A stretch of DNA of 64,000 nucleotides from a virus. The DNA is taken from IMG/VR virus record IMGVR_UViG_3300032893_000006, positions 32,001-96,000 of that record; one strand, 5' to 3'. The notes beneath the pieces were generated by a model. The model was given only the letters and a program-made list of their open reading frames with translations, had not been told where the DNA came from and did not search any database. The position numbers were made by a program, and so were the translations under genes. Below are positions 4,808 to 58,117 of the stretch, one piece after another; position 1 is the first letter of the stretch, and each line of letters starts with the position of its first letter.

Positions 4808-5128
4808 TCAGTCTGGTGGAAGCCCCCTCCATGTGTTTCGAATGAAGTCGCCAAAAGCGCCACTAATCATCACGATGCATTTATGGGTATAGAAAATTGA
4901 TGGTTGTGTGCGGACAGCGTAGGAAAGAAAATTCGCCGCGTCGGTTGTCCGGCCAGAATCGAAAAGGCGATTCAAATAAACCACTAATGCCCTGATCTGC
5001 TTTTGTGTTTGAGCAGTTGTCGCCGCCAGCCGCGCCACACGCTCAATAGCGGTATCACTGTCAGGGAATGGCGCGGTTGCCGGGGCAGATAGAATTGCGG
5101 TTACTAGGTCCGCTACTGAAATACTCAT
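4808..5128 (-). CDS. Hypothetical protein
   Basis: 106 aa ORF co-oriented with the early operon. Confidence 0.55.
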   Translation of the reverse strand: MSISVADLVTAILSAPATAPFPDSDTAIERVARLAATTAQTQKQIRALVVYLNRLFDSGRTTDAANFLSYAVRTQPSIFYTHKCIVMISGAFGDFIRNTWRGLPPD

Positions 5129-5174
5129 TGCCGGTCCAGTCTGCCGCGATACGCTCGCGGCCAGCGGTTACTGG

Positions 5175-7952: not shown

Positions 7953-7954
7953 GG

Positions 7955-37383: not shown

Positions 37384-37947
37384 TTAGCGAGAAAAACTAT
37401 CATCGCTGTAGTTAGATCGAGGAAAATTTAATTGAGAGAATTCGCCAAAATATCGAAAGGCAGCGCGATCATAGGCGACCGCAGCTTCTACCTTGGATAC
37501 ATAGTGCCCGAGGTGGTGGACTTTGCCTCGGACTTTTATCATTGCTTCAAATTTCCCATTTCGGAGAAGTTGGACGCCTTTGTACCCCGTTTTATTGTTC
37601 GCGCGCTTCGCACAGTTTGCGCCATTCTGAGAAACAGTACCGGGGCGCAAGTTCTCATCTCGATTGTCAAGGCCATCGCCGTTCTTGTGATCGATGGTTG
37701 GCGAGATGAAGTCATTGGTGATGAAGCGATGCATCGTGATTCGTTTTTCTTTTCCAGCTACAGACATTTTTCGCATCGCATACCAGCCGCGTCCTTTTCG
37801 ATCAAGTTCTGCGGTCCAGTTGAACTGATTGACCAGTTCATATCGATGTGCACTGACCAACGCGTTCTTGCCTTGGGACAATGGAACGATGCGGTAGGAT
37901 GGGTCAAGCGGCTGCTCGACAACGTGTCTCACCACGGTGCGCTTCAT
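37384..37947 (-). CDS. HNH-AP2 homing endonuclease, antisense to the late operon
   Basis: IDHKNGDGLDNRDENLR, GYKGV, AAVAYDRAA..YFGEFSQLNF. Confidence 0.9.
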   Translation of the reverse strand: MKRTVVRHVVEQPLDPSYRIVPLSQGKNALVSAHRYELVNQFNWTAELDRKGRGWYAMRKMSVAGKEKRITMHRFITNDFISPTIDHKNGDGLDNRDENLRPGTVSQNGANCAKRANNKTGYKGVQLLRNGKFEAMIKVRGKVHHLGHYVSKVEAAVAYDRAAFRYFGEFSQLNFPRSNYSDDSFSR

Positions 37948-38024
37948 GATCTCTCCATCACAGAGATTGTGCGGCAGGTGGCCGCTTTAGATTCCTCTCA
38001 GTGTAGCAGACTGGAGGCAATCTA

Positions 38025-39293
38025 ATGCCGTTCCAGAACATGTATCAGGAGCTTCTCGGTGCTGTACCCGGCTCGAACTTGGGGTTGGTGAAGACCAAGA
38101 TCAATGAAGCTTTCCTGACAATTCAGAACGAGAACGTCTGGTCCTTTGAGCTTCTCACGGGAGGATGGCTCACGCCCGGACTTCTTGGCGGCACTGGCAT
38201 CAGCGGAGCGCCGGGGACGAACTTCCTGAGCCCGGGAACGATCACGGTGTCTCCGTACACGACACAGATCACTGGAGACGCGGTCGCGACCGCAGCTTGG
38301 CTTGCGACTCTGTCGACGCCTCCATTCATCACGCAATACCAGTTCCGCGTTCCCTACTACTCGCTCTACAGCGCCATCTCCCTGACGTTTGCTGGCACGC
38401 TTGCATATGTGACGGTCTTGACTCCCGGCTCCGGACAGACACCGGGCATGTATACCTTGAACGGGACTGGAGGATCGGGAACCGGCGCGCAGATCATCGT
38501 GACGGTCGACTCGAACGGCGAAGTGACCACTCCTCCTCTTGTGACCAACCAAGGCAGTGGATACGCGCCGGGTGGAGTTGCGAATCCACCGAGCTTCACG
38601 CTCGCCGCAGGCGGCACACCAGCAACGTTCTCGGCCACCTTGAACGCGATCATCACCACCGACAGGCCGTGGATGGAGCCAGCACAGGTCAACGCAGGCT
38701 ACATGGCTTATCAGGCGTACTTCGCTGCTCCTCCGGGATTCAAGCGCTGGTACAACATCCGCGACACCACCAACAACAACTACATGGATTGGTGGACCAA
38801 GACCCAAGAGGACTTATCCGATGAGGATGCCGAGAGAACGTTCTTCGATGAGCCCCTTTATGTAGTTCCGTACCAGCAAGACACGAGGCCGGGATCGCCG
38901 ACGTATGGACAGATGCTGTTCGAGCTTTGGCCGCACCCGATCACACAGCTTCCGTATACGTTCGGATGTGAGTGTAATTGGCCGCAACTCACAAATCCGA
39001 CCGACATTGTTCCGTACCCTCTGACAGAAGAGGTCGTCAAGCTCAGAGCTTACGAGATGATGTCACTCTGGAAGGAATCGCAGAAGGGTGACGATATGGA
39101 GCGAGGCGCTGGTGCCGATTGGAAGTTCTTGGTAGGAGCCTACCGGGCGGAGTACGCCAATCGGCTAAAGCAATGCAGGAATATGGACAGACACCTCGTA
39201 GACCTGTACTTCACAAAGATGAAGCGGTTGCCCGCGACACAGGGCGATCCGTATGCCACCATCTCCGGAACTTTGAATGTGGGGTCAATGTAA
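38025..39293 (+). CDS. Head-tail adaptor/tail tubular-like structural protein with an NQGSGY insert
   Basis: Position and adaptor-like helical ends; function inferred. Confidence 0.55.
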   Translation: MPFQNMYQELLGAVPGSNLGLVKTKINEAFLTIQNENVWSFELLTGGWLTPGLLGGTGISGAPGTNFLSPGTITVSPYTTQITGDAVATAAWLATLSTPPFITQYQFRVPYYSLYSAISLTFAGTLAYVTVLTPGSGQTPGMYTLNGTGGSGTGAQIIVTVDSNGEVTTPPLVTNQGSGYAPGGVANPPSFTLAAGGTPATFSATLNAIITTDRPWMEPAQVNAGYMAYQAYFAAPPGFKRWYNIRDTTNNNYMDWWTKTQEDLSDEDAERTFFDEPLYVVPYQQDTRPGSPTYGQMLFELWPHPITQLPYTFGCECNWPQLTNPTDIVPYPLTEEVVKLRAYEMMSLWKESQKGDDMERGAGADWKFLVGAYRAEYANRLKQCRNMDRHLVDLYFTKMKRLPATQGDPYATISGTLNVGSM

Positions 39294-39827
39294 GGGATGC
39301 TTATGACGCGCAGAAAAAGCAAACTCGCCAAAATATTTCCGCTCTGCCTTGCGACGAGCAACAGTGGCGAGTTGAATCGTATCGTAAAGGCCGAGATCAA
39401 TTTCCTTTTGGTTAACAACGATTCTAGCTCTCCATTTTCTGCTTCGCTTGAACCAACATACGCCGGTAACGCCAGAGGTGTTGTTTGCGGCAGGCTTCTT
39501 GTTCGCATGGTTTTGCGCGTGCGTGCATTCTCTAAGATTCTTTCTTCTACAATTGAGAGAATTTCCATCCCAATGATCGACCTCGCATTGGGGTTCGCCG
39601 CATATTTGGCGATGCAGGTAGACAGTGCGTGGCTCGCCTTCTCTTCCACGTCGCGCTGCATAGAAGCTTTTTGTGAATCGGCTATATTCAGCGTACCAGT
39701 TCCATTGTATTGCCCATTTGTAATCACGAGCGTCAACGATAGCGCACTGGCCTCTAGTCAGAGCAATCAAACGCACAGATTTTTCGGACGGTTGAACAAC
39801 TGTTTGTCGCTGTTTAGGGTTTGCCAC
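39285..39827 (-). CDS. HNH-AP2 homing endonuclease, antisense to the late operon
   Basis: VDHWDGNSLNCRRKNLR, NTSGVTGVCW..KWRARI..YFGEFA. Confidence 0.9.
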   Translation of the reverse strand: MANPKQRQTVVQPSEKSVRLIALTRGQCAIVDARDYKWAIQWNWYAEYSRFTKSFYAARRGREGEPRTVYLHRQICGEPQCEVDHWDGNSLNCRRKNLRECTHAQNHANKKPAANNTSGVTGVCWFKRSRKWRARIVVNQKEIDLGLYDTIQLATVARRKAERKYFGEFAFSARHKHPLH

Positions 39828-39865
39828 ACAGAAATTTTATCAGTTGATTTTGAGGGAGTATAAAA

Positions 39866-40246
39866 ATGAGCGGTTACGCAGGAGATGGACAAGCCAAACT
39901 TCTCAACGTCACCCAACAGGGATACTTTTGGGCGAGCGAAACAGTGACAGTTGGCGAGCTAAGCATTGGTTTCGAATTGAGCCGCACGACTTCGATGTAC
40001 TATCCGTGGGGATTCGCTGTTGAGGTTCAGTTCTCGGGAAACCCCGGAACATTCGAAATCGACATCATGGGCGCGGAAACAGACGCCAAAAATAACTATG
40101 TCAAGCTTGGAAGCATCACGGCGACGAACGCGACATTCGTCGGGCGCTTCGAAGGACTGACATACTATCCACGCTATGTGGCCCTTTACGTCACATCGCT
40201 AGGAAACGCCGGGACGGTGAGCGTGAGCGGAAAGGTAACAAGGTAA
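39866..40246 (+). CDS. Small structural protein, tandem paralog 1
   Basis: Similar along its length to 40250..40642. Confidence 0.8.
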   Translation: MSGYAGDGQAKLLNVTQQGYFWASETVTVGELSIGFELSRTTSMYYPWGFAVEVQFSGNPGTFEIDIMGAETDAKNNYVKLGSITATNATFVGRFEGLTYYPRYVALYVTSLGNAGTVSVSGKVTR

Positions 40247-40249
40247 AGT

Positions 40250-40642
40250 ATGCCCGGCTATGCTGGAAACGGACAATCGAAGCTTCTGCAGATGAACGAG
40301 CAGAGGAACCTTTGGGCAAATGAAAATGTTGCCGAAGGTGAACTTAGCGTAGCCTTTCAGATTAGCCGCGTTACCAGCACATACTACCCATGGGGACTGT
40401 CATTTGAAGTGATCTTTTCTGGTGATCCGGGTGCATTCGAGATCGACATTATGGGAGCAAACAGCGACAATAATTTTTCCTATGTGCAGATCGGAAGCAT
40501 CACGGATGCAAGCGGAAGCATTGTTGCGGGCCAATTTGTCGGAAGATGGGATATGCCGTCAAATATTTGGCCAAAATTTATTGCGGCCTACATGAAGACA
40601 ATTACCAACGCCGTAAAAGTAAATCTTGAGGTTACTCGATGA
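40250..40642 (+). CDS. Small structural protein, tandem paralog 2
   Basis: GYAGxGQxKLL..GELS..YYPWG..FSGxPGxFEIDIMGA shared with paralog 1. Confidence 0.8.
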   Translation: MPGYAGNGQSKLLQMNEQRNLWANENVAEGELSVAFQISRVTSTYYPWGLSFEVIFSGDPGAFEIDIMGANSDNNFSYVQIGSITDASGSIVAGQFVGRWDMPSNIWPKFIAAYMKTITNAVKVNLEVTR

Positions 40643-41817
40643 AGAGGGCACTACTTTTCGCGATAATCGGCGTTGCGATGCCGGTGTTGGCTCAAAAGTA
40701 TCCTCCTGTCTTACTACTGGATGGAGCGGGAAATCCCTACCCATTCGGAAACGGCGCACAACTTCATTCAAACCCTCCAATCATGGAGTGCTATACAAAT
40801 GCGACGGGGATCGTTCAACCATGCAATTTTAGCGGTGGAGGTGGAGGAAATCCGGGCGGTTCAAATGGCGATATTCAATACAACAATAACGGAACATTCG
40901 GAGGTTCCGCAGCGACAATAACAGCAGGCGGCTCAATCACTATTCCCTCAGGGCAGTCGATAAACCTATCCAGTCAAGGCCCGGGAGTTCTCTTTGGAGG
41001 TACGCCGACATTCTTTCCCACGTACCCTGTGATCTCTGATGAAGAATATTCGCCGTCAAGCGTAGGCTCTTCGACTCAGCCTGTGTTTTTTGGCAAAGTT
41101 TTTACATTTACACCATCATGGACCAGTAGCAGCACAATTGTGGAATTGATAGGAGATTTTGGATTTACAACGTCCCAATCGACAGATAGCACAAGTTATT
41201 CAGTCATACAGCATTCTGAAATCGGTGCGGTGGCCGGGGGATCGGGTTTGATTGATTCGGTGATCGGAGGAGAATTTTCAGCAGTAAATCAAGGAACTGG
41301 GTCTGTAACTCAAGGTCAAGGGCTCATCGCCGATTGCCATAATCTTGGTCTTGGAACTGTTACTGAATGCGCGTCTATCGACGTCAATGAAGGGGGAAAC
41401 GCTCCCCCGGATACCGGACCGGTCACCACGGCAATTGGCGTTAAAATCGATGGCATTTTAGAGGGCTCCACAAACTATGACATTTGGGCGACTGATGCTT
41501 CGGCGTTGAATCGCTTTGATGGTCTGGTAATGTTTCCGATCACCGAATCAATCGGAACGCAAACGATATCTGGATGTTCGTTGACTTCTGCGGCTGGAGG
41601 TGCATCTACAGGTTCTTTTCATTCCGGAACCAACGGTACTTGCACCGTCACTATCACACCCGGCATAACTGCTGCTCATGGATTCTACTGCGCAGCACAG
41701 GATACGACAACCGTCGCCGACACCTTGCACCAGACCGCAACAGGAGCAACATCTTGTATAGTGTCTGGAACTACAGCTTCTGGCGATGTAATCACATGGA
41801 CTGCAGCGGCGTTTTAA
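40639..41817 (+). CDS. Secreted fibre/adhesin-like protein with a Sec signal peptide
   Basis: MKR + hydrophobic core + VLA/Q; 8 Cys in the mature part; Gly/Thr/Ser-rich. Confidence 0.7.
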   Translation: MKRALLFAIIGVAMPVLAQKYPPVLLLDGAGNPYPFGNGAQLHSNPPIMECYTNATGIVQPCNFSGGGGGNPGGSNGDIQYNNNGTFGGSAATITAGGSITIPSGQSINLSSQGPGVLFGGTPTFFPTYPVISDEEYSPSSVGSSTQPVFFGKVFTFTPSWTSSSTIVELIGDFGFTTSQSTDSTSYSVIQHSEIGAVAGGSGLIDSVIGGEFSAVNQGTGSVTQGQGLIADCHNLGLGTVTECASIDVNEGGNAPPDTGPVTTAIGVKIDGILEGSTNYDIWATDASALNRFDGLVMFPITESIGTQTISGCSLTSAAGGASTGSFHSGTNGTCTVTITPGITAAHGFYCAAQDTTTVADTLHQTATGATSCIVSGTTASGDVITWTAAAF

Positions 41818-41818
41818 T

Positions 41819-44800
41819 ATGAAGAGAATATTCACAGCATTGGCATTCTTTTGTTGTGCAATGACGGGGCTCGCGCAAAACGGAGCAGTGCAGCGGTACT
41901 GCGACTTCGGAGCCAGTCAGGCAATTGTTTCCGGCCTGAGAAGCTCGAACTATCAGCAGGGCGACATCCCCCAGTGCACGGTGACAGTCTATTTGACCGG
42001 AACAACAACGCTGGCCCCGATCTATACAGCAAGCACTTCTACTGCGACGGTTGGCTCGATATCGGTCACTGCAGGTGGCACCTATTCTGTATGCCCAACC
42101 GGTATCAGCTTGAGCGGCGGAGGCGGAACAGGAGCGGCTGCGACACCGTCTTGCACGGGGACTGCAGTCACTTCGGTTGCGGTAACGAATCCCGGTTCTG
42201 GATATACGAGCGCACCCACAATTTCTTTTACCGGTGGGACCGGAAGCGGAGCCACTGCGACTGCAAACATGACTGGCAATTTGACCAATCCATTTGTGGC
42301 TAATGCAGACGGTTCTTACCTTTTTTACGCTCTTCAAAACCAAGGTCTTGACGTTCAATTGAGCGGCGGTATTTTTCCGAATACATACCCAACTCCGAAC
42401 ACGCTGGTAGACGTATTTCCAAACCAGAGCTTCTCCCCTGTCAGTGGTGTCACTCAATTGAGTGCAACTGGACCAATCGAGGTAAATGGCGGTTCTGGCC
42501 CGGTCACAGGCTCAGTGCTGATCTCCTGCCCTTCATGCGGCTCCGGTTCTACAACCAATGCACTGACGATGAATAATTCTGGATCAGGCGCGTCATCCGG
42601 CTCGACCTTCAATGGCTCCTCGGCGATCACACTGAGCTATAACACGCTCGGTGCTGCTCCGACCGCGAGCCCGATATTTACGGGAATCGTTGATGCGAGT
42701 GGGGCCACTCAATTTAAACTACCCGTTGCTGCTGGTTATACATCCGCAGCGAATGGAGAAATTGGGTACGACTCGACCAACAAGAATTTTCACGCTTGGG
42801 TGAACGGAGCGGACACGTTGCTAATTCCGCTCGCATCTGGCTTTACAAGCGGACACTGTGGTCAGCCGACAAGCTCGGGCGGATCATGGACGATTGTAGA
42901 CGCAGGTGCCGCGTGCGGGACCGGTTCGGGAGGAGTTACGAGCCTAAACTCATTAACCGGAGGTATAAACTTAACATCGACCAGCAGCACGATAACAATT
43001 ACACCGGGAAGCTCAACAATTGACTTGGAGACCAGTGGAGGAGGCGGAGGAGGTTTACCCTCAAACGCGCTCTTCATTTGCGCGGGCGATTCGATGTGCG
43101 ACGATGATAACCATGTCCTTTCGCCTGCAATAGCTATTGCCTCATTTACTGTTTCTGGATCGACGGTGACTGTAAACACGAGTGCGGCGCATGGCCTTAC
43201 ATCTGGCAACTGGGTTTCAATGAGAGCGGCAACTGGTTGGCCTCAAAACGTGAGTCCGATGGGCCTTGGAACAGGACTCACTATATTTCAGGCAACGGTG
43301 ACGAGTTCTACCCAGTTCACATTGAACGTTGGAAGCCGTTCTGTTTCGCCCTGTTCGTCTTCCTGCGGGAATGCATACTCGGCAATGCCGTATGTCGAAT
43401 TTGCTAAATCGGCTAATCCCCTGTTTCCTTCAGGCGCTTTAACAAACACTGCGACCTGTATGGATACCGGATATCGTCTTCAAACTCTAGCTTCCGATTT
43501 TTCCGGTCTTATTAGTGCATGTGTCGGATCGACCACAGGTAAAGTACCGTACGTCACACTTACCAACGCGAACGATGACGTAGCTCTCTGCGAAACCGCT
43601 GCACAGATCGAGGGATATTACCAGACCATCTTTTCCGCTATCCACGCCATTAATGGGTTTGCCAGCGCTATGACTGCCACAGGAGCGAACTGGGCTACGA
43701 ACACGTTGGGATGCTCAACGCACGTCTGGGATATACAAGAGCAAGTAGACCTTTGGCTACGTCAGCAGTCTAAACAGGAAGTTCAGGCTACAAGTCCGGG
43801 GTCGACCGCCTATTGGGATGCACTGGAAGATATTGGTCCGGACTTAACTGACGCAAACAATACGGCGTTGATCGCAACCAACACCGGTTTTGGTCCGGAA
43901 GGAGCGGCGCGAGCAGCCCAGATTGGATCGCAGTCTCTTCTCGTAGGTAATGGAACGTCCGAGCCACGTAATACTTTGTGGTTTAGAGCCATCAACAGTA
44001 ACGCAGCAGCAGGCATTAACAGCTTGAGCTATGTTCCACGCAACGGCACCACGAATTATCTCTATCAGTGGTTTAATTCATCTTCATCTCTCGTGGCGTC
44101 GCTGACAGATTCGGGCATATTTTCGCCTACATATCTCAACGTGGGGTCCAACGGATTGAGCGGATGCCCGGGCGGTAGGCCGTTTTGTATAGGCACCGGC
44201 TTCAATATTGATTCCAGCAATGTGCTTTATGTGGTTCATGGGATCAACGCTGATTCCGGAGGAAGCTCTAGTAAATATTGGGCTACAGATGGAAGCGTGC
44301 AATCGGTCCCATCCGGAGGCTTCCCGATCACCATAGGTTCCACATCGATTGCATCTGGCAGCACTACGACTACAATTGCAGGTCTCACGCTTTCCAGTCC
44401 TGCATTTACAGGAACTGCGGATGCGAGTGGGTCCACTCAATTTAAACTACCCGTTGCTGCTGGTTATACATCCGCAGCGAATGGAGAAATTGGGTACGAC
44501 TCGACCAACAAGAATTTTCACGCTTGGGTGAACGGAGCGGACACGTTGCTAATTCCGCTCGCATCTGGCTTTACAAGCGGTCACTGTGGTCAGCCAACAA
44601 GTTCAGGTGGATCGTGGACTATTGTTGACGCTGGCGGGGCTTGCGGAACCAGTGGCGGCGGAGCAGCGTGGTCAGCGCTTACCAGTGGAACCAATACGAG
44701 CATGTCGGCGGTGATGGGTTCTGGTTCTAGCCTTGGCTATACCGGAACCGGGGCTATTAACGCTTCAGCAGTTGACGGTGTAACAGTTACCGGAACTCCG

Positions 44801-45403
44801 AGTGCAGGTCAAGTGCCAACTGCAACCAGTGGTACGGCGGCAACGTGGCAGACTCCGAGCAGCGGAACAGGAAACTTTGTCAATATAGGAGCATCTGTCG
44901 CGTGGTCCGGATGCACGTATTCTGGTGGAGTCTGTACAACTTCCGGATCGTCTACTAGCTCAATCACTATATCCAGCATTCCATCGACTTACCTAAGTTT
45001 AGTTATTAGAGTAGTTGGAGGCATAGCGACGTCTGGCTCTAATGCTGATGTCGGAATGCAATTTAATGGTGATACAGGAAACCACTACGACCGCGCCTAT
45101 AATTATTACGGAAACACTAATGCTCAAGGTGATCCAACAAACTCAGCCTTTGTGCCTATTGGCACCCTTGCGGGAGGAGCAGGAACTAAAGGCGGCACTA
45201 TGACCGCTACCATTGAAAATTATGCAGGAACAACAACTTACTATCGCCAATTTCATTCAGAAGGCTACACGTATTACGGCGGACCGGAAGGATTCCAAAA
45301 TTCGGGTGACTGGCAAAGCACAAGCGCTATAACTTCCATTACGCTTGTCTTAAGTTCTGGTGATTATTATGGAACAAACTTTGAGATTTATGGGACCAAC
45401 TAG
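41819..45403 (+). CDS. Secreted tailspike-like protein: signal peptide, virion-anchor-like N-domain, SGNH-like central domain
   Basis: MKRIFTALAFFCCAMTGLA/Q; TVTVYLTGTTTLAPIY...NPFVANADGSYLFYA; ICAGDS motif; 22 mature Cys. Confidence 0.7.
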   Translation: MKRIFTALAFFCCAMTGLAQNGAVQRYCDFGASQAIVSGLRSSNYQQGDIPQCTVTVYLTGTTTLAPIYTASTSTATVGSISVTAGGTYSVCPTGISLSGGGGTGAAATPSCTGTAVTSVAVTNPGSGYTSAPTISFTGGTGSGATATANMTGNLTNPFVANADGSYLFYALQNQGLDVQLSGGIFPNTYPTPNTLVDVFPNQSFSPVSGVTQLSATGPIEVNGGSGPVTGSVLISCPSCGSGSTTNALTMNNSGSGASSGSTFNGSSAITLSYNTLGAAPTASPIFTGIVDASGATQFKLPVAAGYTSAANGEIGYDSTNKNFHAWVNGADTLLIPLASGFTSGHCGQPTSSGGSWTIVDAGAACGTGSGGVTSLNSLTGGINLTSTSSTITITPGSSTIDLETSGGGGGGLPSNALFICAGDSMCDDDNHVLSPAIAIASFTVSGSTVTVNTSAAHGLTSGNWVSMRAATGWPQNVSPMGLGTGLTIFQATVTSSTQFTLNVGSRSVSPCSSSCGNAYSAMPYVEFAKSANPLFPSGALTNTATCMDTGYRLQTLASDFSGLISACVGSTTGKVPYVTLTNANDDVALCETAAQIEGYYQTIFSAIHAINGFASAMTATGANWATNTLGCSTHVWDIQEQVDLWLRQQSKQEVQATSPGSTAYWDALEDIGPDLTDANNTALIATNTGFGPEGAARAAQIGSQSLLVGNGTSEPRNTLWFRAINSNAAAGINSLSYVPRNGTTNYLYQWFNSSSSLVASLTDSGIFSPTYLNVGSNGLSGCPGGRPFCIGTGFNIDSSNVLYVVHGINADSGGSSSKYWATDGSVQSVPSGGFPITIGSTSIASGSTTTTIAGLTLSSPAFTGTADASGSTQFKLPVAAGYTSAANGEIGYDSTNKNFHAWVNGADTLLIPLASGFTSGHCGQPTSSGGSWTIVDAGGACGTSGGGAAWSALTSGTNTSMSAVMGSGSSLGYTGTGAINASAVDGVTVTGTPSAGQVPTATSGTAATWQTPSSGTGNFVNIGASVAWSGCTYSGGVCTTSGSSTSSITISSIPSTYLSLVIRVVGGIATSGSNADVGMQFNGDTGNHYDRAYNYYGNTNAQGDPTNSAFVPIGTLAGGAGTKGGTMTATIENYAGTTTYYRQFHSEGYTYYGGPEGFQNSGDWQSTSAITSITLVLSSGDYYGTNFEIYGTN
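42692..44645 (+). repeat. In-frame direct repeat inside the 1194-aa gene; 148 bp identical (42705-42852 and 44433-44580)
   Basis: Offset 1728 nt (576 codons); flanks more diverged. Confidence 0.95.
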
Positions 45404-45410
45404 GAAACTC

Positions 45411-45782
45411 ATGCGCTACATTCTCGTCGTCCATGTGTTGATGCTTGTCTCTATTGCAAAAGCGCAAGTAGCTCCGATTGCCTACGAGGATAGCCTTACG
45501 TGGCAGGCTCCAGTTGCCTCGACCGATCCTGTGGTCGGCTACAACGTGTACCGCGCACTTGGAACCAGCGGAACATACGCAGTTTTGAATACTCAACCTG
45601 TGACTGCGACAGCGTATATCGACGGCACCGTCGCTTTGGCAACGAGTTATTCTTATCAGGTAAAGAGCGTAGATGCCCAAGGCAATCAGAGTGTTCCGTC
45701 AAACACGATAACCATCAATCCCGTAAGGAGATTACGATGCGCCGAGTTTCAATTCCGCTTCTTGTTTTCCTGCTTTCGATGA
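45411..45782 (+). CDS. Secreted single fibronectin type III domain protein
   Basis: Signal peptide ending AKA/Q; LTWQAP..VGYNVYR..YSYQVKSVD..SVPSN. Confidence 0.8.
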   Translation: MRYILVVHVLMLVSIAKAQVAPIAYEDSLTWQAPVASTDPVVGYNVYRALGTSGTYAVLNTQPVTATAYIDGTVALATSYSYQVKSVDAQGNQSVPSNTITINPVRRLRCAEFQFRFLFSCFR

Positions 45783-46267
45783 TGCTGACCTCCGGATGCA
45801 GGAGCCAAGTCTCTCCAGCGCCACAACCATCGAATACAGTGACGATTGCTCCTGCCTCGTGCCCATCTGGGCAAACGTGCAGCTATTCGTATTTAGTGAG
45901 TCGTGCGATCTGTAGCTCGGCGACAAGCTGCCCGACACCTGCGACTGGAGTCTACACACCGCTGAATGCAACTGCGCTGGCAACCTCGACCTATACTGAC
46001 ACGACGCCTCCATCAGGACAATATGTTGCATATGTAACTCAGGCGACGCTTGATGGAACTCATTTTGGAAATCCCTCTCCCGCCTCAGCGGCTATTCTCA
46101 CAGCGCTTTATCCGGGGACCCCCGGCACGCCGACTGTGACGGCTTTAGCGGCCTTAGCGCCTCCAGTAAAAATAGGTGTGCCAGTGCAATTGACTACTCT
46201 TGTTCCTGTTCCAGATCGCCCTATGGCTAAGTCGATGGTCCTAGCTTTGAGGGTAGAAAGTAAGTGA
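45737..46267 (+). CDS. Lipoprotein with an FN3-like domain
   Basis: MRR + hydrophobic core + lipobox TSG/C; YLVSR..YTPLNAT..TYTDT resembles the preceding FN3. Confidence 0.7.
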   Translation: MRRVSIPLLVFLLSMMLTSGCRSQVSPAPQPSNTVTIAPASCPSGQTCSYSYLVSRAICSSATSCPTPATGVYTPLNATALATSTYTDTTPPSGQYVAYVTQATLDGTHFGNPSPASAAILTALYPGTPGTPTVTALAALAPPVKIGVPVQLTTLVPVPDRPMAKSMVLALRVESK

Positions 46268-46488
46268 CATTTGCGGAGAGATATGGCGCTCAGATTCTTG
46301 CAAATTTGGACGCGATTAGGAGTGAGTTGAAACGGGTAGAAACTATCCGGTTTTTTTACGAAAGACGAAAAGTTCCAGTGTTTGTAGAAGTAGGCAATGG
46401 GTGGTACCGAAGAGTCTACCCGCAAAAGAGAGATCGGCAGAGGAAGAACAACTTAGCAGCCTACCAAGTGCTGCAAAAAAATAAGTGA
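46264..46488 (+). CDS. Hypothetical basic protein
   Basis: GTGA coupling on both sides. Confidence 0.45.
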   Translation: MTFAERYGAQILANLDAIRSELKRVETIRFFYERRKVPVFVEVGNGWYRRVYPQKRDRQRKNNLAAYQVLQKNK

Positions 46489-46739
46489 TTTGGGAGCCTA
46501 TCGTGGATATCGACACAGCTTGGGAAGAAATAACCAAATTGCGGCGCATTGTGGTTGACGGAAATGGACAGAAACCTTTAACCACCCGCATGACAGAAGT
46601 GGAGGGGAAGATGGAAGAAATCACCGCTCTTCGAACCGACGTGAAAAAGCTCATGGGAATCGTGCTAGGGGCACTCCTCGCCATGCTCGGCACAGTTGGC
46701 GCGGACTTTTTCATTCGTATTTTGCATTCAACCAAATAA
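46485..46739 (+). CDS. Holin/antiholin-like protein (coiled coil plus one C-terminal TM)
   Basis: TM LMGIVLGALLAMLGTVG; adjacent to the endolysin. Confidence 0.5.
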   Translation: MIWEPIVDIDTAWEEITKLRRIVVDGNGQKPLTTRMTEVEGKMEEITALRTDVKKLMGIVLGALLAMLGTVGADFFIRILHSTK

Positions 46740-46743: not shown

Positions 46744-47193
46744 ATGGCAAGCTCATTGGATATTGCAATTCCGGCTCTATGCGCATGGCGCGAAAATCGC
46801 GGCGGAGGTGCGTTGGGGATGCAGTCTGTTCTCAATGTTCTACAAAACAGAGCTAATCGCGATAGGACAACCATGTACGCCGAAGCAGTGAAGAAACTTC
46901 AATTTTCTTCGCTTACAGCAAAGGGTGATCCGGAATTGACGCTATGGCCAGTTGAAGGTGATCCGCAATATGTCGAAGCTGAGCAGATGATGCAAGAGGC
47001 TCTAGCGGGACAGCTTGCTGATATCACACACGGAGCCACGATCTACTACGCTCCAACAGGTATTGGCCCTAGCAGCCAGACATTCGCGGTTCCCGGAGGA
47101 GCGACTGTCCCATTTCCTGAAAATTGGCAACAATCAAAGGTGCAATTCACGACGGGTATTGAGAATCAGCTTTTTTTCAAGGAGATCGCATGA
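46744..47193 (+). CDS. Endolysin, SleB/Hydrolase_2-type cell wall hydrolase
   Basis: AWRENRG..GMQSVLNVLQNR..QFS..GATIYY motif order. Confidence 0.8.
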   Translation: MASSLDIAIPALCAWRENRGGGALGMQSVLNVLQNRANRDRTTMYAEAVKKLQFSSLTAKGDPELTLWPVEGDPQYVEAEQMMQEALAGQLADITHGATIYYAPTGIGPSSQTFAVPGGATVPFPENWQQSKVQFTTGIENQLFFKEIA

Positions 47194-47471
47194 GCAACTT
47201 TATTCAAGTTCTCGCACAACTCATTGCTAATCTACTGCAACGTGCATTCGGCACAAAGCCGAACACGCTGCTTACAGTCACCGGCGTCGTCGCTGCTCTT
47301 GCTGCGCTGCTTGCTGCTCTTCCACCAAGCATCGTTCCGGTCAAATATCAACCGTGGTTAACAGGAGCAGCAATGTTCTTTTCGCTGCTTGCTGGTGCTT
47401 TGGGATATGGCCAAAAGGCGAATGCGAGCGATCCAACACCTCCACCGAAGTCGCCCAAGGAAACCAAGTAA
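47190..47471 (+). CDS. Putative holin (2 TM)
   Basis: Two hydrophobic helices and a charged tail, coupled to the endolysin. Confidence 0.6.
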   Translation: MSNFIQVLAQLIANLLQRAFGTKPNTLLTVTGVVAALAALLAALPPSIVPVKYQPWLTGAAMFFSLLAGALGYGQKANASDPTPPPKSPKETK

Positions 47472-47503: not shown

Positions 47504-48052
47504 ATGAAAAGGCGTCAATTTATCACCAGCATTGCGAAAGCAACTGCCGCTGCAATTATGATCGGTTCAACCACAGTTATGGTCGAGGGCTGCACCTTCG
47601 ACGTTAAAACCGCTCTCAACACCTTACTCGATTCGCTCAACGCGATCCTCAAGGTTGCCGAGCCCAACGCGACATGGACAAGTCCACTCTCGAACGCAAT
47701 AGCGGCCCTTGAACAAGCCGAGAGCGCATGGCAATCCGGAAGTCCAGCGCAGGTGATCGTCAGTGCGCTGAACACCATCGAGGCTGTGATCGCCGTGATT
47801 CCAGTAACCGCATCCTATGCCCCACTCGTCGACATCATTATTGCTGGAATCGAGGCCGTAATGTCAGCACTAGGACTGACATTTTCGCTGTCTGGAGAAG
47901 ATTCACGAAAGCGCGCAACCGTCGTAAACAGCCCTCACTTCAAAGCTACGACAATCAAGACGTCGGCACTCCACCCGACGTGGACTGGAGCCTACAAGCA
48001 TCAGTGGAATAGCGAGTGCAATACGCTGAAGATGCCACAGGCAAAAATCTAA
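47504..48052 (+). CDS. Tat-signal lipoprotein (spanin-like position)
   Basis: MKRRQFI twin-Arg motif, lipobox VEG/C, amphipathic helices. Confidence 0.6.
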   Translation: MKRRQFITSIAKATAAAIMIGSTTVMVEGCTFDVKTALNTLLDSLNAILKVAEPNATWTSPLSNAIAALEQAESAWQSGSPAQVIVSALNTIEAVIAVIPVTASYAPLVDIIIAGIEAVMSALGLTFSLSGEDSRKRATVVNSPHFKATTIKTSALHPTWTGAYKHQWNSECNTLKMPQAKI

Positions 48053-48147: not shown

Positions 48148-49014
48148 ATGGCATACCTCCCCCTCTCTCCTGCCGGACGCCGGTACGGTCGGTTTCGCGA
48201 CAACCCCTACCATCCCGCGCGGACCTTACTCGCGATGAACCCAACAACAGACGTCATTCTTCCAGCCAAGGCTGCAACATCTCAGTGGACCGGGCCAATT
48301 CGCGATCAAGGCCAAGAAGGCTCCTGCACTGGTCAGATGGGAGGCGCGCTACGTGATGCGCTCTACCGTAAGCTATTTCAGTACGAAAAAGATCGCAGTA
48401 TTTCCGCCGATCAATTCAAGGTATCGGCCTCTTTCATCTACAAGTGCAATCTCATCGCTGACGGCGATCTTGGCACAGATGCTGGTAGCAGCATTCATCA
48501 GACCGTCATGACGCTCAACCAGAAAGGAGCGTGCCTCGAATCCGAGGAGCCGTACAGCGACAGCGACTATTCGACCGAGCCTACACAGACGCAGTACGAA
48601 CAAGCGCTCACTTACAAATCTGGGGCCTACCATTACATTCCTGATCTCCAGACCATGAAGTCTTGTATCGCATCAGGTTATCCGTTCGGTTTCGGAATCT
48701 CTGTCTATTCGTCGTTCGAGGGGACATGGTCTGAGCCGGGAATGATGCCGGTGCCTGATCCAAACACAGAGCAACTCCTCGGAGGTCATGCTCAACCAGT
48801 CTTTGACTACGACGACACCCTTGAGTTTCCGGACGGAAACGTTGGCGGATTCTTGATCCAGAACTCGTGGGGCAGCGACTGGGGAATTTCTGCACCGGGA
48901 CGAAATGATGGCGGTTTCTATTGGATGCCATACGCCTTCGTTGAAGGTAGCGATCCAAAGAATGGTCCGTTCGTGAACGATGCGTGGGTTATTCACCTTG
49001 GTCCAGCTTGGTAA
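48148..49014 (+). CDS. Papain-like (C1A) cysteine peptidase
   Basis: IRDQGQEGSCTG (oxyanion Gln, catalytic Cys), GGHA (His), QNSWG (Asn). Confidence 0.92.
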   Translation: MAYLPLSPAGRRYGRFRDNPYHPARTLLAMNPTTDVILPAKAATSQWTGPIRDQGQEGSCTGQMGGALRDALYRKLFQYEKDRSISADQFKVSASFIYKCNLIADGDLGTDAGSSIHQTVMTLNQKGACLESEEPYSDSDYSTEPTQTQYEQALTYKSGAYHYIPDLQTMKSCIASGYPFGFGISVYSSFEGTWSEPGMMPVPDPNTEQLLGGHAQPVFDYDDTLEFPDGNVGGFLIQNSWGSDWGISAPGRNDGGFYWMPYAFVEGSDPKNGPFVNDAWVIHLGPAW

Positions 49015-50340: not shown

Positions 50341-51840
50341 ATGCCTTCGAATTACCAATGGATACAGCTAACGACAGCGATCTCGCAGCTTGCGCAACGT
50401 CTCAGCGATCCAAGTAACGCTTTTTGGACACAAGCAGAACTTGTTATCTACATTCAGCAAGCCCTGCGTCTATTTAACACCCTAACCTTCACTTGGAAAA
50501 CAGACTTCACCTACAACTCGTCGACTATCTGGAACTCGCTTGGCTCATTGAACGGTTCCCCTCGTCTTCGTACGCAAACCGACGTTAATTGCTATACGCA
50601 GATTGAGTACATGCTGCTGGAACCGCCTACAGGCGGAACGTGGACCGGCACCAATCAGTTTTCCATTGCCAATCTGTCGCAGGCGCTGCAGACTCGGCGC
50701 GACGAGATGATTCAAGTTGGCAATCTCAATTCCGTTTTGCTGCCGAATATTCCTGTGACGCCTAATGTGCGTCGCACCTATCTTCCAGATTCCACAATTG
50801 ACGTGGCGCGAGTTCGCTATCTTGCGTTGCAAACCTCCACGACCGGATCGGCTTCTTCTGGGGCGACAAGCATTACTGTTGGATCGACACGGGGAATCAC
50901 TCAAGGGCAAATTGTGAGCGGCAATGGAATTGCTTACGGCTCGGCAGTAGTTGCTGTCGAACCCAACTCCATCACAATTGCTCCAGCGTCAATTGGGGTT
51001 GTAACAGGAACGTTAAACTTCTACAGCGCGTCGATTATTTTTCGCGACGACACAGTAGCTTCGGAATTCTATGAGGCACCTCTCTATCAGCAGCCTTCAG
51101 GAACTCCGCAAATATTTTCGCTATCTTCCGAACCACCTCTTTCATGGAATGTTGACATTGCACCGAACACGGTCGGAAGTTACGAAGCAATTGTTTCTCA
51201 GACTGGCACAGCATTTTCGCCCCCGTCTGCAACACTGCTCAATATTCCCGATGATTTCACTTGGGCGTTAATCTTTGGAGCTATGGCTGACCTGCTTGGT
51301 CGCGAAGCTGAGGCATCTGATCCGCAGCGGGCTGAGTATTGCTTAAAGCGCTACATGGACGGCCTGATGCTACTTCAAAAAATTCCATGGATTATGCTCG
51401 GGCGCGTTAATGGAAAAGCAGTCAATTGCGATTCAATCTTCGCTTTGGATCACTTCGACAGCAACTGGGACTCAAACCCAACTAATTTTGGCCCGGTAAT
51501 TGTGACAGGTGGCGTCGACTTCGTTGCGGCTCCATCTGGATCGGGAATTGGGCTGACGGTTCTCGGTAACGCGCCGATTCCGGTTTCCGGAAGTGATTAT
51601 GTGCAGGTGAGCAGAAGTGACTATGACATCATCCTCGATCTAGCTCAAAGCTTTGCGTGTTTTAAGATGGGCGGCGCTGACTGGCAGCAATCGCTTGAAC
51701 TTGAGGCGCGAGCCATTCAAGCCTGTTCTGCTGAAAATACTCGCCTCCGTAGCTTCGGTGCCTTCAGCGACATTCTAGTGCAGAGAGGGCAGCAAGAGCA
51801 GAGAGATCAGAATCCATACAACGCGAACAAGGCAAAGTAG
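50341..51840 (+). CDS. Head-tail adaptor/tail structural protein
   Basis: LTTAISQLAQRLSDP..FWTQAELVIYIQQA adaptor-type N-terminus; ALIFGAMADL C-terminal helix. Confidence 0.6.
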   Translation: MPSNYQWIQLTTAISQLAQRLSDPSNAFWTQAELVIYIQQALRLFNTLTFTWKTDFTYNSSTIWNSLGSLNGSPRLRTQTDVNCYTQIEYMLLEPPTGGTWTGTNQFSIANLSQALQTRRDEMIQVGNLNSVLLPNIPVTPNVRRTYLPDSTIDVARVRYLALQTSTTGSASSGATSITVGSTRGITQGQIVSGNGIAYGSAVVAVEPNSITIAPASIGVVTGTLNFYSASIIFRDDTVASEFYEAPLYQQPSGTPQIFSLSSEPPLSWNVDIAPNTVGSYEAIVSQTGTAFSPPSATLLNIPDDFTWALIFGAMADLLGREAEASDPQRAEYCLKRYMDGLMLLQKIPWIMLGRVNGKAVNCDSIFALDHFDSNWDSNPTNFGPVIVTGGVDFVAAPSGSGIGLTVLGNAPIPVSGSDYVQVSRSDYDIILDLAQSFACFKMGGADWQQSLELEARAIQACSAENTRLRSFGAFSDILVQRGQQEQRDQNPYNANKAK

Positions 51841-52182: not shown

Positions 52183-55100
52183 ATGGACTTTAGAGGATTA
52201 GACCTTACGTCTCCGATCAACCGGCTGAAGTCCGGTTTTGCCGCGATGTGTGTCAACGTCCGCGCCTACTTCAAGGGAGGTTTTCAGATTCGCAATCTCC
52301 TGACCAATGCAATCATAACCGTAGCCGATGCGATTGAAACGATAGCGAGGCTGAACGACACCACTCCTGCCGGACCGGGAAGCGGATACACTTATGTAAT
52401 TGCAGCGGGTACTAAGATTTATGCGGCGTCAACAGGTAGTCCTTCCGCTATTGCGACAGGAATGAGCGGTAACCCAGTCTCCATGGTGCCGTTTCGACCG
52501 AATGCCTCTGTGCAGCCGTGGATGTATATCGGCGACTCTGCCCCGACACCAGCAGGATCGATCACCTATGTAACCATCAGCACAAAATACGCTATAAATG
52601 GCGATGCTACTACCTTCGATTGCTCGTCCATGTTAAAGGTGCGTTCCGATAGCCTGATTTATAAAATGGGAATTGAAGAACCGCAGACAGCACCCGTTGT
52701 TTCAACGACCGGAACAACAACAACCGGAACAGATGCTCTGCCAGCAACTACGGTGCCGTGGACAAACGTTGGCGGAGTCAATCCTTCATATAACTATGGC
52801 CAGACAAGTGGTAGCGACGGAACTTCGCCCGTAATTATTTCAACACCGGCTGGCGCACAAACATTAACTCTGGCAATCACTGGAACTGCCACAGTCAACG
52901 GAGCAACTCACGGTCCCGGCGATACAGGTCCGACTGGATCGAGTTATCCCGCAAACTTTACAGGCGCGGGGCCAACAATTGTCCTTGGGGCCTTTACTGA
53001 CGGCTCAGGAAATGTCCTGACGGGGACTTCTCCTGTGCCTCTTCTCGCGAATGTTGGTTCTGGAATCACGCTTCAGATTCCGGCTGGAGCATCCCAATTT
53101 CAAATCGGCATCGATTCTCACGCTAACACATTCTCAGCCAATTCTGGATCGTTTACTGTCAATTGGACTTTGGTAACGAGCGCCATAGCGACGGTCATCT
53201 CAACCCTTGGAAATGTCACAGTTTATTATTGGGGCGATTCGCCCCATACGGGTCCAGTTGCAGACTACATCTGGAAAAATCCGAATGACACCGGCACGGG
53301 TATTGCGCGCTCAACCGGAACTGCTGCGGGAACGGTAACAAACAATTCGTGGATGTTTGACTCATCGCCAGAGGACGGCACTGTGCCCTTGCTATGGGAC
53401 ACTCTCAACTCCTCCGCTACAATCACCGGATCGATCCCAGTGTTTTCTCCAGCACTTGAGTCGGCTGGATATCAAGACTTCAATATGTGCGTTGTTGGAA
53501 CCATTTTTGTTCCAGCCGCAGGAACCTACGAGTTCACCTTCGTCAACAAAGATCAGATCATGGTTGGTATTGGCGGCGGGGCTACGGTTCCGGGAGGCTA
53601 CGTCACTGGGCAGGTGGGACAGACAGAAACAGTCGTCAATGCTCTACCTTTGATTTATGTCTCAACTCCGAACGGAGCAGGCGGTAAAGTTTTTCAGACG
53701 ATCAGCATCACTTTTCCGGGGTCAGGGTCGTATGAAGTCGAAATTGATTACGACTACTGGTACCACACTGGCCGGTGCCTATACATGCTACTTGGTACAG
53801 TGGCTTCGCTCCCACCGTCTACTTCGAACATTATTCCACCGCTTCCGCAGGGTGTGCGCACTGGAGTCTCCTACGCCTGCAAATATAGGAATTCGCAAAC
53901 CGGAGCAGTGTCCAATCCCGGTCCGACTTCGACTCCGCAGGTAACACCGGTACTAGATAATACGGTGGTCTGCCCATACTCACCCGATCCTCAGGTGGAC
54001 AAGGTTGACTACTATCGTCAGGATTCTGGGCTCGCGAACTATACGTACGTAGCGACCGGACCAAACACCAATCCACCTACTCCGATCACGGATACGTTGA
54101 CCGATCTCGAAGCTGCCGACAACCAAGTGATGGATACAGACGACTACGAGCCATTTCCATCAATTGACTTGCCGCAATCTGGCGTTGTTAATGTGTCAGG
54201 CGGCGTGATCTCATGGGTAAGCGGAAACAAGTTCAATATTCGGTGGCTTGCAGGAACAATCATTGAGATTGGCTACCCAACACAGTTGGCATACAGCTTG
54301 ATCGCGCGGCCAACATCCGACACAACTATTGTCATTCCGGAGGTTCCTGACGGAACAAGCCTGACCTACAACATTCCTGAGCCGATTCTCGCTGCACAGC
54401 CGCTGCCTTATCTATTCGGACCCACCGATAACATCAATTTCGAATACGGCGTCGGCGACCCATTACGCCCGGGGACGCTTTACTGGTCCAAAGGCAGCAA
54501 TCTTGACTCTGCTCCTGATACAAACCAGCTTGACGTGACCGATCCTTCCGAGCCGCTCGTGAACGGAGCAATCAGCGGTGGATTAGGAGTTTTATTCTCA
54601 ATTCGCAGGGCGTGGATCATCGAGCCGAACTACTACAATGCTACGGCTACAGCGCAGGGCGTGTCCGGAACAACATGGAGTCTGCAAGTCTCGCAGATCA
54701 ATCGCGGGCTATTTATGCCACGTTGCGTAGCTGTCGAAGGCTCCGGAAACATATTCTTTCGTGTGGATGATGGCATTCATGTTTCAGTTGCTGGCTTGTC
54801 ATCACAGTCAATTACCGATGAGATGCTCTACCCATTATTCCCTCATGAAGGTTCTGCGCCCCAAGCAATTGTCCGTAATGGCGTAACAATCTATCCCCCG
54901 GACGATACGAATCCAGAAGCGCAAAAGTTCGCCATTCAAAACGGTTATCTGTATTACGACTACGGCTATAGCTACGAAGCGCCAGTCGTAACCGATGTCT
55001 CGTTTATCCCGGAAAGTGCTACATCTGCTGGCGATGGAATTGCATGGGCTAATCCTAGTTCTGCGACAGCAGGATCACTGCCTGCGGTAGCAAACGTTAC

Positions 55101-56790: not shown

Positions 56791-56948
56791 AGTATGGAAG
56801 CATAACTTCTCGTCGTTGCGCACGTTGCCTGACCATAGGTACCGGGCAACTCGCGAATGGAATCTGTGTGAAGTGTTACGAGTGGCAAAAGAAGAATCCA
56901 GAGAAGAAGATCAAATTGCCGGTCGTTGTTAAGCCGAGGGTCTCGTGA
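56787..56948 (+). CDS. Small zinc-binding protein (CARC...CVKC)
   Basis: Hand-translated 53 aa, coupled at both ends. Confidence 0.5.
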   Translation: MKYGSITSRRCARCLTIGTGQLANGICVKCYEWQKKNPEKKIKLPVVVKPRVS

Positions 56949-58117
56949 GTTCTAATCCTCTAGTTTCGTCATTTCGTTTCGTCAACTCTATTCCGGAGGG
57001 CGCGGCGCATCCAACTGTCGTGAAGGCGCTGCGTGATCTTACCAATAGCACCACCGATCTTCAAACCTCAATTCCTCTTCTCCAGAAGCAATTAGATGAC
57101 TTGAAAACGAGCACGACCACAGCCGCATCCACACAGACCATCGTAGAAAATATCACGCAGAATCCATTTGCCGGACTGGGTAGCGTGAATAACGAATCAT
57201 CGGAAACCTCCTATACCACTCAAACTTCCGACAACGGAATCCTGCTGATTTTCTCAGATGCCTCGGCGGTCGCGGTTACGTTAAATTTTGCCGTGTCGGC
57301 ACCATGGTTTTGCTTTGCGGTGAATTGGGGCGCTGGCGTTGTCACCTTTACTCCACAGTCTGGAAACATTTCCTATATTGGGAACCTCGCCGCGTCGTCG
57401 ATGCCCTTAACTAAGGGCTACCTGACGATGATCGTCTTTGACGGAACAAACTTTTGGGCCGCTACGCTCCCGACTGTTCCCCAGACGTTCAACGCCATCA
57501 CTCACGAGTTCCTGATCTCTTACGATGCGACGACAGGGCTCTTTACAGCGGCGCAGCCTGCTTTTACCGACATCAGCGGTACGGCAACTTCATCTCAAGG
57601 AGGCACTGGCATAAACTCTTCGGCGTCGACCGGGGTAGCTCAGGTCAGTGCCGGTACGTGGTCCATCTCGGCAGCGTTAGCCAATGGAACAACCGGCACA
57701 ACGCAAACAGCAAATGATAACTCCACCAAGGTCGCGACGACGGCTTATGTGGATGGCACTTTGCCACGCGTTAAGGCTTCAACTACACTTACCGGACAGA
57801 CTGGAGCAATCGGCACAACCGCCATTTATACACCATCCGCTGCAGGCTCTTACCGCGTCACGTTTGTCTTGTGGATAACAACTGTGGGAACAGGAGGCAC
57901 GATCAGTGCAACGGCCTCATCAAATAACGGCGCTGGTGGATCATCGAACTTTTATGGAACAAGCGGTGCGAGCACGACGGTACTGGGGGCGCAGGTGCAA
58001 GCTGCTTTGATGTTTCACGTTGCTGCAGGTCAGGCGATCAACTACTCGACTTCCTTTAGTTCAGTCACCGGAAGTCCTGTTTACAGCTTAGATATCATTG
58101 TGGAGCAACTGAAGTAG
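56945..58117 (+). CDS. Tail fibre-like protein
   Basis: N-terminal coiled coil, Thr/Gly-rich shaft, NSTKVATTAYV motif, beta-rich tip. Confidence 0.7.
   Translation: MSSNPLVSSFRFVNSIPEGAAHPTVVKALRDLTNSTTDLQTSIPLLQKQLDDLKTSTTTAASTQTIVENITQNPFAGLGSVNNESSETSYTTQTSDNGILLIFSDASAVAVTLNFAVSAPWFCFAVNWGAGVVTFTPQSGNISYIGNLAASSMPLTKGYLTMIVFDGTNFWAATLPTVPQTFNAITHEFLISYDATTGLFTAAQPAFTDISGTATSSQGGTGINSSASTGVAQVSAGTWSISAALANGTTGTTQTANDNSTKVATTAYVDGTLPRVKASTTLTGQTGAIGTTAIYTPSAAGSYRVTFVLWITTVGTGGTISATASSNNGAGGSSNFYGTSGASTTVLGAQVQAALMFHVAAGQAINYSTSFSSVTGSPVYSLDIIVEQLK

Follow-up and report, generated by a model that had tools for sequence, protein, structure and literature searches.

Probable export of tailspike- and fibre-type proteins of a short-tailed phage with a probable acidobacterial host, and a possible periplasmic branch of virion assembly

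Tailed-phage assembly is, in the textbook account, wholly cytoplasmic. Esterase tailspikes, of which G7C gp63.1 is reportedly one, carry no export signal to our knowledge. Moo19 and B2 are reported as further examples of esterase tailspikes. Here we analyse a window of 64,000 nucleotides, bases 32001-96000 of the 134,337-bp IMG/VR virus record IMGVR_UViG_3300032893_000006, which is rated complete by CheckV. In this window, four consecutive genes between the tail genes and the lysis genes, here called g1 to g4, likely encode export substrates of a short-tailed soil phage whose host is probably an acidobacterium: three would leave by Sec and signal peptidase I, and one would be a lipoprotein. 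The largest, g2, is a tailspike homologue.

Several described systems bear on this locus. The tail spike of the cyanopodoviruses Pan3 and Pam1 is represented in PDB by 9vyg (chains m, n and o) and, for the Pam1 receptor-binding domain, by 7eea. Tunturi_1 (PP887698) is a cultured podovirus of Tunturiibacter whose published account does not mention signal peptides and reports no proteomics (PMC11924767). In Cellulophaga phage phi18:3 (NC_021794, Pachyviridae), three consecutive large proteins, gp085-gp087, are encoded immediately 5' of the lysis genes. Their leaders end S/Q, A/Q and A/Q, and the annotation calls them virion structural on the basis of "experimental MS/MS proteomics" (tandem mass spectrometry). 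The MAT fibres of Bdellovibrio bacteriovorus consist of a signal peptide, directly followed by a conserved beta-rich N-domain (~130 aa) and then by variable phage-fibre-like modules (Caulton et al. 2024, PMC10769870). Phages of Porphyromonas gingivalis encode leader-bearing proteins that follow the Q-rule; their function is unknown and tail parts are not mentioned (Matrishin et al. 2023, PMC10367356). The Q-rule, a signal peptidase I site that exposes Gln, has been described as specific to Bacteroidetes (PMC5837995). Our literature search found no paper describing Sec signals on tail fibres or spikes, and a search on PDB 9vyg returned irrelevant matches only.

The four genes and the parts of g2 are arranged as follows.

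40639..41817, + strand: g1, a putatively exported fibre-like protein of 392 aa with a Cys-loop N-segment, a GGSNGDIQYNNNGTFGG shaft motif and a C-terminal beta domain; signal at 40639-40692
41819..45403, + strand: g2, a tailspike-type protein of 1194 aa, found in the same place after the tail genes in ~29 contigs and in Tunturi_1 (gp12)
41819..41875, + strand: predicted g2 signal peptide of 19 aa, the leader character being kept across the family
41876..42418, + strand: g2 N-terminal anchor domain from Gln20, with C28/C53 and an inserted immunoglobulin-like repeat (~residues 75-150); profile match to PDB 9vyg, and PHROG matches for the insert
42665..42901, + strand: g2 internal repeat, copy 1 (residues 283-361), with one Cys pair
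43046..43948, + strand: predicted SGNH/Ape1-like esterase-fold domain of g2 with an inserted beta domain (~residues 410-710), from Foldseek
44393..44629, + strand: g2 internal repeat, copy 2 (residues 859-937), with one Cys pair
45411..45782, + strand: g3, a putatively exported protein of 123 aa with one Fn3-like domain, for which the match to fn3 is weak (E 0.004); the final 46 nt are shared with g4
45737..46267, + strand: g4, a putative lipoprotein of 176 aa with a Cys-containing Fn3-like domain and a Pro-rich tail; homologues in the sequences designated L012, L035 and L019

The N-termini of g1, g2 and g3 read MKRALLFAIIGVAMPVLA/QKYPP, MKRIFTALAFFCCAMTGLA/QNGAV and MRYILVVHVLMLVSIAKA/QVAP, with predicted cleavage at VLA/Q, GLA/Q and AKA/Q, respectively. 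In each leader, a basic n-region leads into a hydrophobic h-region that is 7-15 residues long and free of charge, and the residues at -3 and -1 are small, as expected of substrates of Sec and signal peptidase I. Shine-Dalgarno-like sequences precede g1, g3 and g4, and g2 starts 1 nt past the g1 stop. The initial annotation had read Sec-type signal peptides cleaving before Gln at 40639, 41819 and 45411, and both the N-termini and their start contexts bear this out. For g4 it had proposed the lipobox TSG/C. The N-terminus MRRVSIPLLVFLLSMMLTSG/C has a hydrophobic leader ending LTSG/C, and the Cys is kept in four homologues (one FG/C, three AG/C); compared with [LVI][ASTVI][GAS]C, the sequence has T at -3 and L at -4 and is non-canonical at -3. 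The N-termini of all four genes in the row agree with the initial description, and the cluster proved to be larger than stated, with a fifth such gene at 47504-48052.

It could be argued that these hydrophobic N-termini are not working export signals and reflect wrong start calls, uncleaved membrane tethers or chance. The recorded gene call, which opens g2 at Met15 (1180 aa) and drops the signal peptide (41819-41861), would fit this view, as would the deviation of the g4 lipobox; however, the start context favours the upstream ATGs of all four genes and Met15 is not conserved. The pattern of residues around the cleavage site also argues against it. Among the best 147 of 4,792 cluster representatives of the wider g2 family, on which all our leader and cysteine statistics for that family are based, a leader with Q directly after it is present in nearly all. 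Of the 109 that were parsed, 88 have Ala at -1 and 97 have A, L or V at -3. A heuristic scan for n-, h- and c-regions over the whole 134-kb genome placed classical signals almost exclusively in the g1-g4 region, and four signal-bearing genes in a row are far beyond chance. We then counted strong leaders in de-duplicated open reading frames (ORFs) of >= 250 aa from related contigs. Within the slot occupied by g1-g4, 26 ORFs had a leader and 9 had none, vs. 2 and 89 outside it (Fisher p 3.5e-17), and both of the leader-bearing ORFs outside were slot genes at the boundary. This family-wide pattern and the run of four genes rule out chance signals. We therefore consider non-functional N-termini very improbable and export of g1-g4 likely, judging from the sequences of the leaders and of their relatives. 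We also considered whether translation from Met15 yields a g2 isoform that lacks the leader, and rejected this since Met15 is not conserved. Several database homologues have similarly truncated starts, e.g. MLFPVGALAQ...

If the leaders are functional, homologues should keep them, and they do in both families that we followed. In the g1 family, only the C-terminal beta domain (~90 aa) is common to the members, yet nearly all 42 open with a leader that ends before Q. In the g2 family, 20 of the 21 relatives have a leader, L028 alone being without one; the leader sequence is variable, its character is kept, and Gln at +1 is invariant or nearly so. Conservation of the mature g2 protein opens exactly at this Gln and continues for ~110 aa (inserts excluded) to a sharp junction (...PVTL), beyond which the relatives are wholly different. 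Searched against 1.84 billion proteins, a profile of the g2 N-domain recovered 571 cluster representatives with E <= 1e-30 and, at the looser limit of E <= 0.001, 4,792. For most of the best 147 the profile match opens at residue 1, and for all but four it opens no later than residue 35. The gene position is equally constant: in ~29 related viral contigs a g2-like gene lies 3' of the same tail genes (homologues of 38025-39293 and 39866/40250) and 5' of lysis genes and of homologues of 50341-51840 and 52183-56790. Small signal-bearing proteins go with the spikes in relatives.

The cysteines of these proteins are distinctive as well. The eight Cys of g1 form four sequential pairs and the 22 of mature g2 form eleven; g4 has four Cys besides the one that is putatively lipid-modified. 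A neighbouring protein of 1535 aa has 9, and neighbouring virion proteins have 0-0.9 Cys per 100 aa. The counts first reported (8, 22, 0 and 4, with 9 in the 1535-aa protein) were correct except for g3, whose mature form has 2 Cys (C110 and C121) rather than none. The median Cys content per 100 aa was 1.88 in leader-bearing proteins, 24 of 28 of which had an even count, compared with 0.41 in the others, of which 53 of 98 were even. The g2 pair C28/C53 lies inside the anchor domain. Both residues were present in 17 of the 21 relatives and neither in four, and never one alone; in the wider family, 106 of 114 had two Cys at these positions, eight had none and not one had a single Cys. Such all-or-none behaviour and the mostly even counts in signal-bearing slot proteins support the earlier proposal that the cysteines are disulfide partners. 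Because the secretion signals look genuine and the cysteines are paired, the signal-bearing proteins probably mature in the periplasm and not in the cytoplasm.

The N-domain of g2 links this protein to known tailspikes. In hmmsearch its profile matched the "Tail spike protein" chains of PDB 9vyg (126-129 residues deposited) with E 1.2e-4. The peptide matched there has 100% identity with the spike of Pseudanabaena phage Pan3, a phage with a P22-like podovirus gene order. Comparison with the Pan3 spike N-terminus by hhalign gave a probability of 92%, E 5.5e-7 and 48% identity over 42 columns. These matches confirm the resemblance noticed at the outset between TVTVYLTGTTT...NPF.AN of g2 and the virion-anchoring N-domains of podoviral tailspikes. 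The anchor domain opens exactly at the predicted cleavage site, is conserved to the recombination junction in the 21 relatives and, within the genome, occurs in g2 alone. By tblastn, the g2 N-domain had no match in cultured phages, and Tunturi gp12 was found via synteny only. Like tailspike genes, g2-type genes lie in the tail module and join a conserved N-domain to interchangeable distal domains; their leaders set them apart from tailspikes as usually defined, which are cytoplasmic and have no export signal. We tentatively propose, giving the idea somewhat less than an even chance, that g2 is a phage tailspike in which a Pan3/Pam1-type anchor domain follows a cleaved signal and precedes interchangeable sugar-acting and receptor-binding modules. 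That exported g1 and g2 are then mounted on virions is a proposal we hold with the same reserve.

In g2, these modules include a predicted Ape1-like esterase fold. Foldseek searches with a model of the middle of the protein (predicted local distance difference test, pLDDT, 70-90) gave as best matches the peptidoglycan O-acetylesterase Ape1 (4k3u, 8gkd) and acetylxylan esterases, with E 1e-4 and probability 1.0, and the predicted structure has the SGNH fold. The nucleophile Ser of the GDS motif and the block III Asn are conserved. A canonical DxxH is not found at the expected place, another His is conserved, and Pfam gave no match to this region; esterase activity of g2 is therefore uncertain. 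A 79-aa module is present twice in g2, flanking the esterase-like domain, and its copies are 94% identical, which suggests a recent internal duplication or recombination.

This fold raises the possibility that g1 and g2 are exported and never enter the particle. They would then act unattached, in the periplasm or at the surface, as enzymes and lectins descended from tailspikes, and g4 would be an exclusion lipoprotein similar to Llp or Cor. Free g1 and g2 would strip or deacetylate the surface glycans or the peptidoglycan O-acetyl groups of the infected cell, and would thus block superinfection, keep progeny from sticking to debris, or aid lysis. Ape1 is a periplasmic enzyme and the four genes directly precede the lysis cassette, both of which fit this idea, but it leaves unexplained why the N-domain is homologous to the N-terminus of the Pan3 tail spike and is strongly conserved up to a junction typical of tailspike recombination. 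The confinement of the anchor domain to g2, the constant spike position and the translational coupling to tail genes in the late operon also argue against it, and we consider it unlikely.

Leader-less relatives serve as natural controls. L028 has the same anchor domain and has neither leader nor cysteines. The protein next in the slot exists in two forms which have the N-terminal Q..VGNY in common. In L018, L021 and L022 it has no leader and starts MSGQVQVGNYGS; in L024, L026 and L029 it has a leader and an extra Cys-containing segment of ~45 aa, and the mature protein starts QIIVGNYTA. The bodies of the L018, L021 and L022 proteins are 64-67% identical to that of L024, and pairs with L026 or L029 are 31-40% identical. 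Since forms with and without a leader occur on similar bodies, leaders come and go on fibre genes that are otherwise ordinary, and cysteines mostly accompany the leader.

These variants would also suit a scheme with two pools, in which export of large, fast-folding trimers is incomplete; the unexported fraction would be mounted in the cytoplasm, with its leader uncleaved or otherwise trimmed, and the exported fraction would act as free enzyme. Near-identical phage backbones carry close homologues of both kinds, signal-bearing and signal-less, and because L028 has the anchor domain without a signal, the anchor should work without export. The scheme sits poorly with the strictly co-varying Cys pair within the anchor domain and with the mostly even, sequentially paired Cys, which point to an oxidising folding compartment. 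The near-invariant Gln at +1 also argues that cleavage matters for the functional form. We judge two pools to be quite improbable.

The C-terminal beta domain of g1 (residues 300-392; 41536-41814) is 50-67% identical to ~40 proteins and is the only part of the g1 model predicted with confidence (pLDDT > 90). Its tip has weak fold matches to tail-fibre and tailspike tips, namely those of the R-pyocin fibre 6cl6 (Z 6.2), LKA1 gp49 and Pam1 (7eea), and g1 would be a second, shorter fibre with a lectin-like tip. In the Acidobacteria metagenome-assembled genome (MAG) L009, an 802-aa protein (4316-6724) combines a leader, a beta-helix and a C-terminal domain of the g1 type. Its gene sits at the edge of a prophage, beside host genes, and the terminase, portal and capsid genes follow directly downstream. 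g3 may be a small exported Fn3-like helper. The g4 homologues in L012, L019 and L035 have a hydrophobic leader followed by Cys and lie near spikes or lysis genes; as a guess, g4 would be an envelope lipoprotein acting in anchoring or in Llp-like exclusion. An i-spanin has an uncleaved N-terminal transmembrane domain (TMD) and a coiled-coil periplasmic domain, and an o-spanin is a small lipoprotein whose gene overlaps or follows. We rejected g3/g4 as such a pair: g3 is beta-rich and Fn3-like with a cleavable-looking leader, and g4, which does overlap g3, has 176 aa and a folded domain.

The genes around g1-g4 provide the context for these proteins.

39866..40642, + strand: tandem paralogous tail proteins of 126 and 130 aa, with no signals and no Cys
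46333..46349, + strand: terminator-like hairpin just 3' of g4, a consensus match only
46744..47471, + strand: lysis genes, comprising an endolysin without signal (to 47193) and a holin-like protein with two TMDs (47190-47471)
47504..48052, + strand: fifth export-signal gene; its 182-aa product is helical and has the twin-arginine motif KRRQF (M[KN]RR.F in general form) as well as a lipobox-like EGC, a combination kept in relatives
56945..58117, + strand: canonical fibre-like protein of 390 aa with no signal and 1 Cys; its C-terminal domain is common to slot proteins of relatives

The window also contains an intein-split terminase, portal and capsid protein genes, a block of tail genes and large proteins of the internal or ejection type. 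No promoter or terminator separating g1-g4 was found, and their GC content is that of their neighbours; this and the coupling to tail genes ruled out a moron or lysogenic-conversion reading. The hairpin at 46333..46349 may mark the end of the tail/fibre operon, though sites matching the terminator consensus are no commoner in this DNA than in shuffled sequence. The pattern MNRR.F...(E/T/I)GC is kept in six of the seven relatives of 47504-48052 that were compared, and this gene after the holin looks like one for a lipoprotein exported by twin-arginine translocation; with the tail-anchored coiled-coil protein at 46485-46739 it could form an unusual spanin-type system. No phage-encoded DsbA or signal peptidase was found. 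Pfam and PHROGs gave almost no matches for the four proteins and their neighbours, Pfam gave none to a type IX secretion C-terminal sorting domain in the four, phmmer searches of PDB were without a match for g2, for the g1 family and for three tail proteins, and the ESM Atlas gave no usable one.

The tail paralogues, 39866-40246 (MSGYAGDGQ..) and 40250-40642 (MPGYAGNGQ..), precede g1, and the second overlaps the g1 start (ATGA). In L037 the module of these paralogues is the N-terminus of far longer proteins (4532-6916 and 6931-8304), as expected of an anchor module. The fibre-like protein at 56945-58117 contains the motif ..ANDNSTKVATTAYVD.., lies among the large internal proteins and has a 55-aa stretch that is 75% identical to a g2-like protein in L014. 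Directly after the lysis genes lies a gene (48148-49014) for a cysteine peptidase of the papain-like C1 type, with a weak PHROG "peptidase" match and the motif QGQEGSC. The + strand ORFs 37432-38025 and 39297-39863 have an odd composition rich in hydrophobic and aromatic residues and overlap long - strand ORFs; they may be non-genes, or the real genes may be on the other strand.

The host of the phage is probably an acidobacterium, because the closest cultured relatives of the capsid protein (29% identity) are in the podoviruses Tunturi_1 and Tunturi_2 of the acidobacterium Tunturiibacter, genome matches to the g1 C-terminal domain fall in Acidobacteriota MAGs, and one g2 homologue carries the name Candidatus Acidoferrales. 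PF05096 (glutaminyl cyclase) was present in only one of three acidobacterial genomes, a result that is uninformative. Among heuristically called host signal peptides (L043-L062, from two Acidobacteriota MAGs, plus L009), Gln was the commonest +1 residue (12 of 55), and several others have A/Q some residues downstream, a preference similar to the Q-rule outside Bacteroidetes.

If g1 and g2 are indeed mounted on virions, the following course may be envisaged. The proteins would cross the inner membrane late in infection and be cleaved before Gln, which may cyclise; g3 would assist as a small exported Fn3 helper. Disulfide formation and trimerisation would take place in the periplasm. The anchor domain would then dock onto otherwise complete particles, either after the holin opens the inner membrane and the compartments mix, or at lysis. 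A canonical holin lesion would mix cytoplasm and periplasm inside a still-intact envelope just before lysis. Since the phage has an endolysin without signal and a holin-like gene with two TMDs, a workable route to the particle exists.

Mounting is favoured by the conservation and homology of the anchor domain, its occurrence in g2 only, the coupling to tail genes, the leaders on all large Tunturi_1 slot proteins and the annotation of phi18:3. Several points weigh against it. We know of no tailed phage that mounts periplasmic parts, and the compartment problem is real. The full-length models are poor, with mean pLDDT of 56 (g1) and 52 (g2), and are confident in single domains only; no fold could be read from them for the g2 anchor domain or the fibre shafts. 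The phage also has the signal-less canonical fibre-like protein at 56945-58117, so g1 and g2 need not be the sole host-recognition parts and may be dispensable for the particle, as expected if they never enter it. The MS/MS detection of the phi18:3 proteins does not demonstrate cleavage and could reflect co-purifying envelope material. The MAT fibres show that a signal, a conserved N-domain and a variable fibre can serve cell-surface display (PMC10769870). With these points in mind, we think it possible, if somewhat doubtful, that tailed-phage assembly has a periplasmic branch in a large group of Acidobacteriota phages, in which spikes and fibres are Sec-exported, cut before Gln, disulfide-bonded and docked only after the holin breach.

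The spike family, with at least 571 protein clusters (4,792 at the looser cut-off) that place a signal, an N-terminal Gln and paired Cys before a virion-anchor domain, implies either an undescribed last assembly step outside the cytoplasm or a wide use by phages of exported enzymes derived from tailspikes. Either outcome bears on how host range is set, on gene calling and annotation (the record opens g2 after the leader) and on the production of recombinant spikes, for which an oxidising compartment may be needed. Cultured systems are at hand in Tunturi 1 and 2 (Tunturiibacter) and phi18:3 (Cellulophaga), so the question is directly testable.

Compared with known systems, g2 is closest in its N-domain to the Pan3/Pam1 tail spike, with which it has the core ..V.VY.TGTTT....Y......L.NP..AN..G.F in common. 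The distal domains are variable in both, and 9vyg includes no more of the Pan3 spike than its first ~126-129 residues. Unlike g2, the Pan3 spike starts MAAQLFYLPF.. and has no signal peptide, no Cys pair and no N-terminal extension of 31 aa. Ape1 and the esterase tailspikes have the SGNH fold with an inserted beta domain, as is predicted for the middle of g2.

Tunturi_1 has the same gene order as the present phage, and its gp12 has a g2-type leader and N-domain; it differs in its 63-kb genome and in its major capsid protein, which is just 29% identical. Its gp12, gp13, gp14 ("tail spike"), gp16 and gp17 all have leaders, which end before Q in all but gp14 (ANA/T). The large gp12, gp13, gp14 and gp17 have 10-32 Cys and the small gp16 has 2. 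Every large slot protein of Tunturi_1 thus has a leader, which speaks against export of g1 and g2 for a role off the virion. The virion detection of the leader-bearing phi18:3 proteins speaks in the same direction. gp085-gp087 are likened to g1 and g2 by leader and position; the host belongs to Bacteroidota and the proteins have few Cys (0-3).

Two systems fit better with proteins that never join the particle. The MAT fibres have the g2 architecture without a virion, and so are a real analogue of the alternative raised in the initial annotation, in which these proteins would be host-surface adhesins or exclusion factors; they are likened to g2 by architecture only, being encoded by a bacterium outside any virion operon and displayed on its own surface. 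The P. gingivalis phage proteins resemble g1-g3 in their signal peptidase I sites exposing Gln and differ in that the host here is probably one of the Acidobacteriota. Beyond these systems, the present window contributes the match of the anchor domain, a measure of how large the family is, the strictly co-varying Cys pair and natural variants that have no leader.

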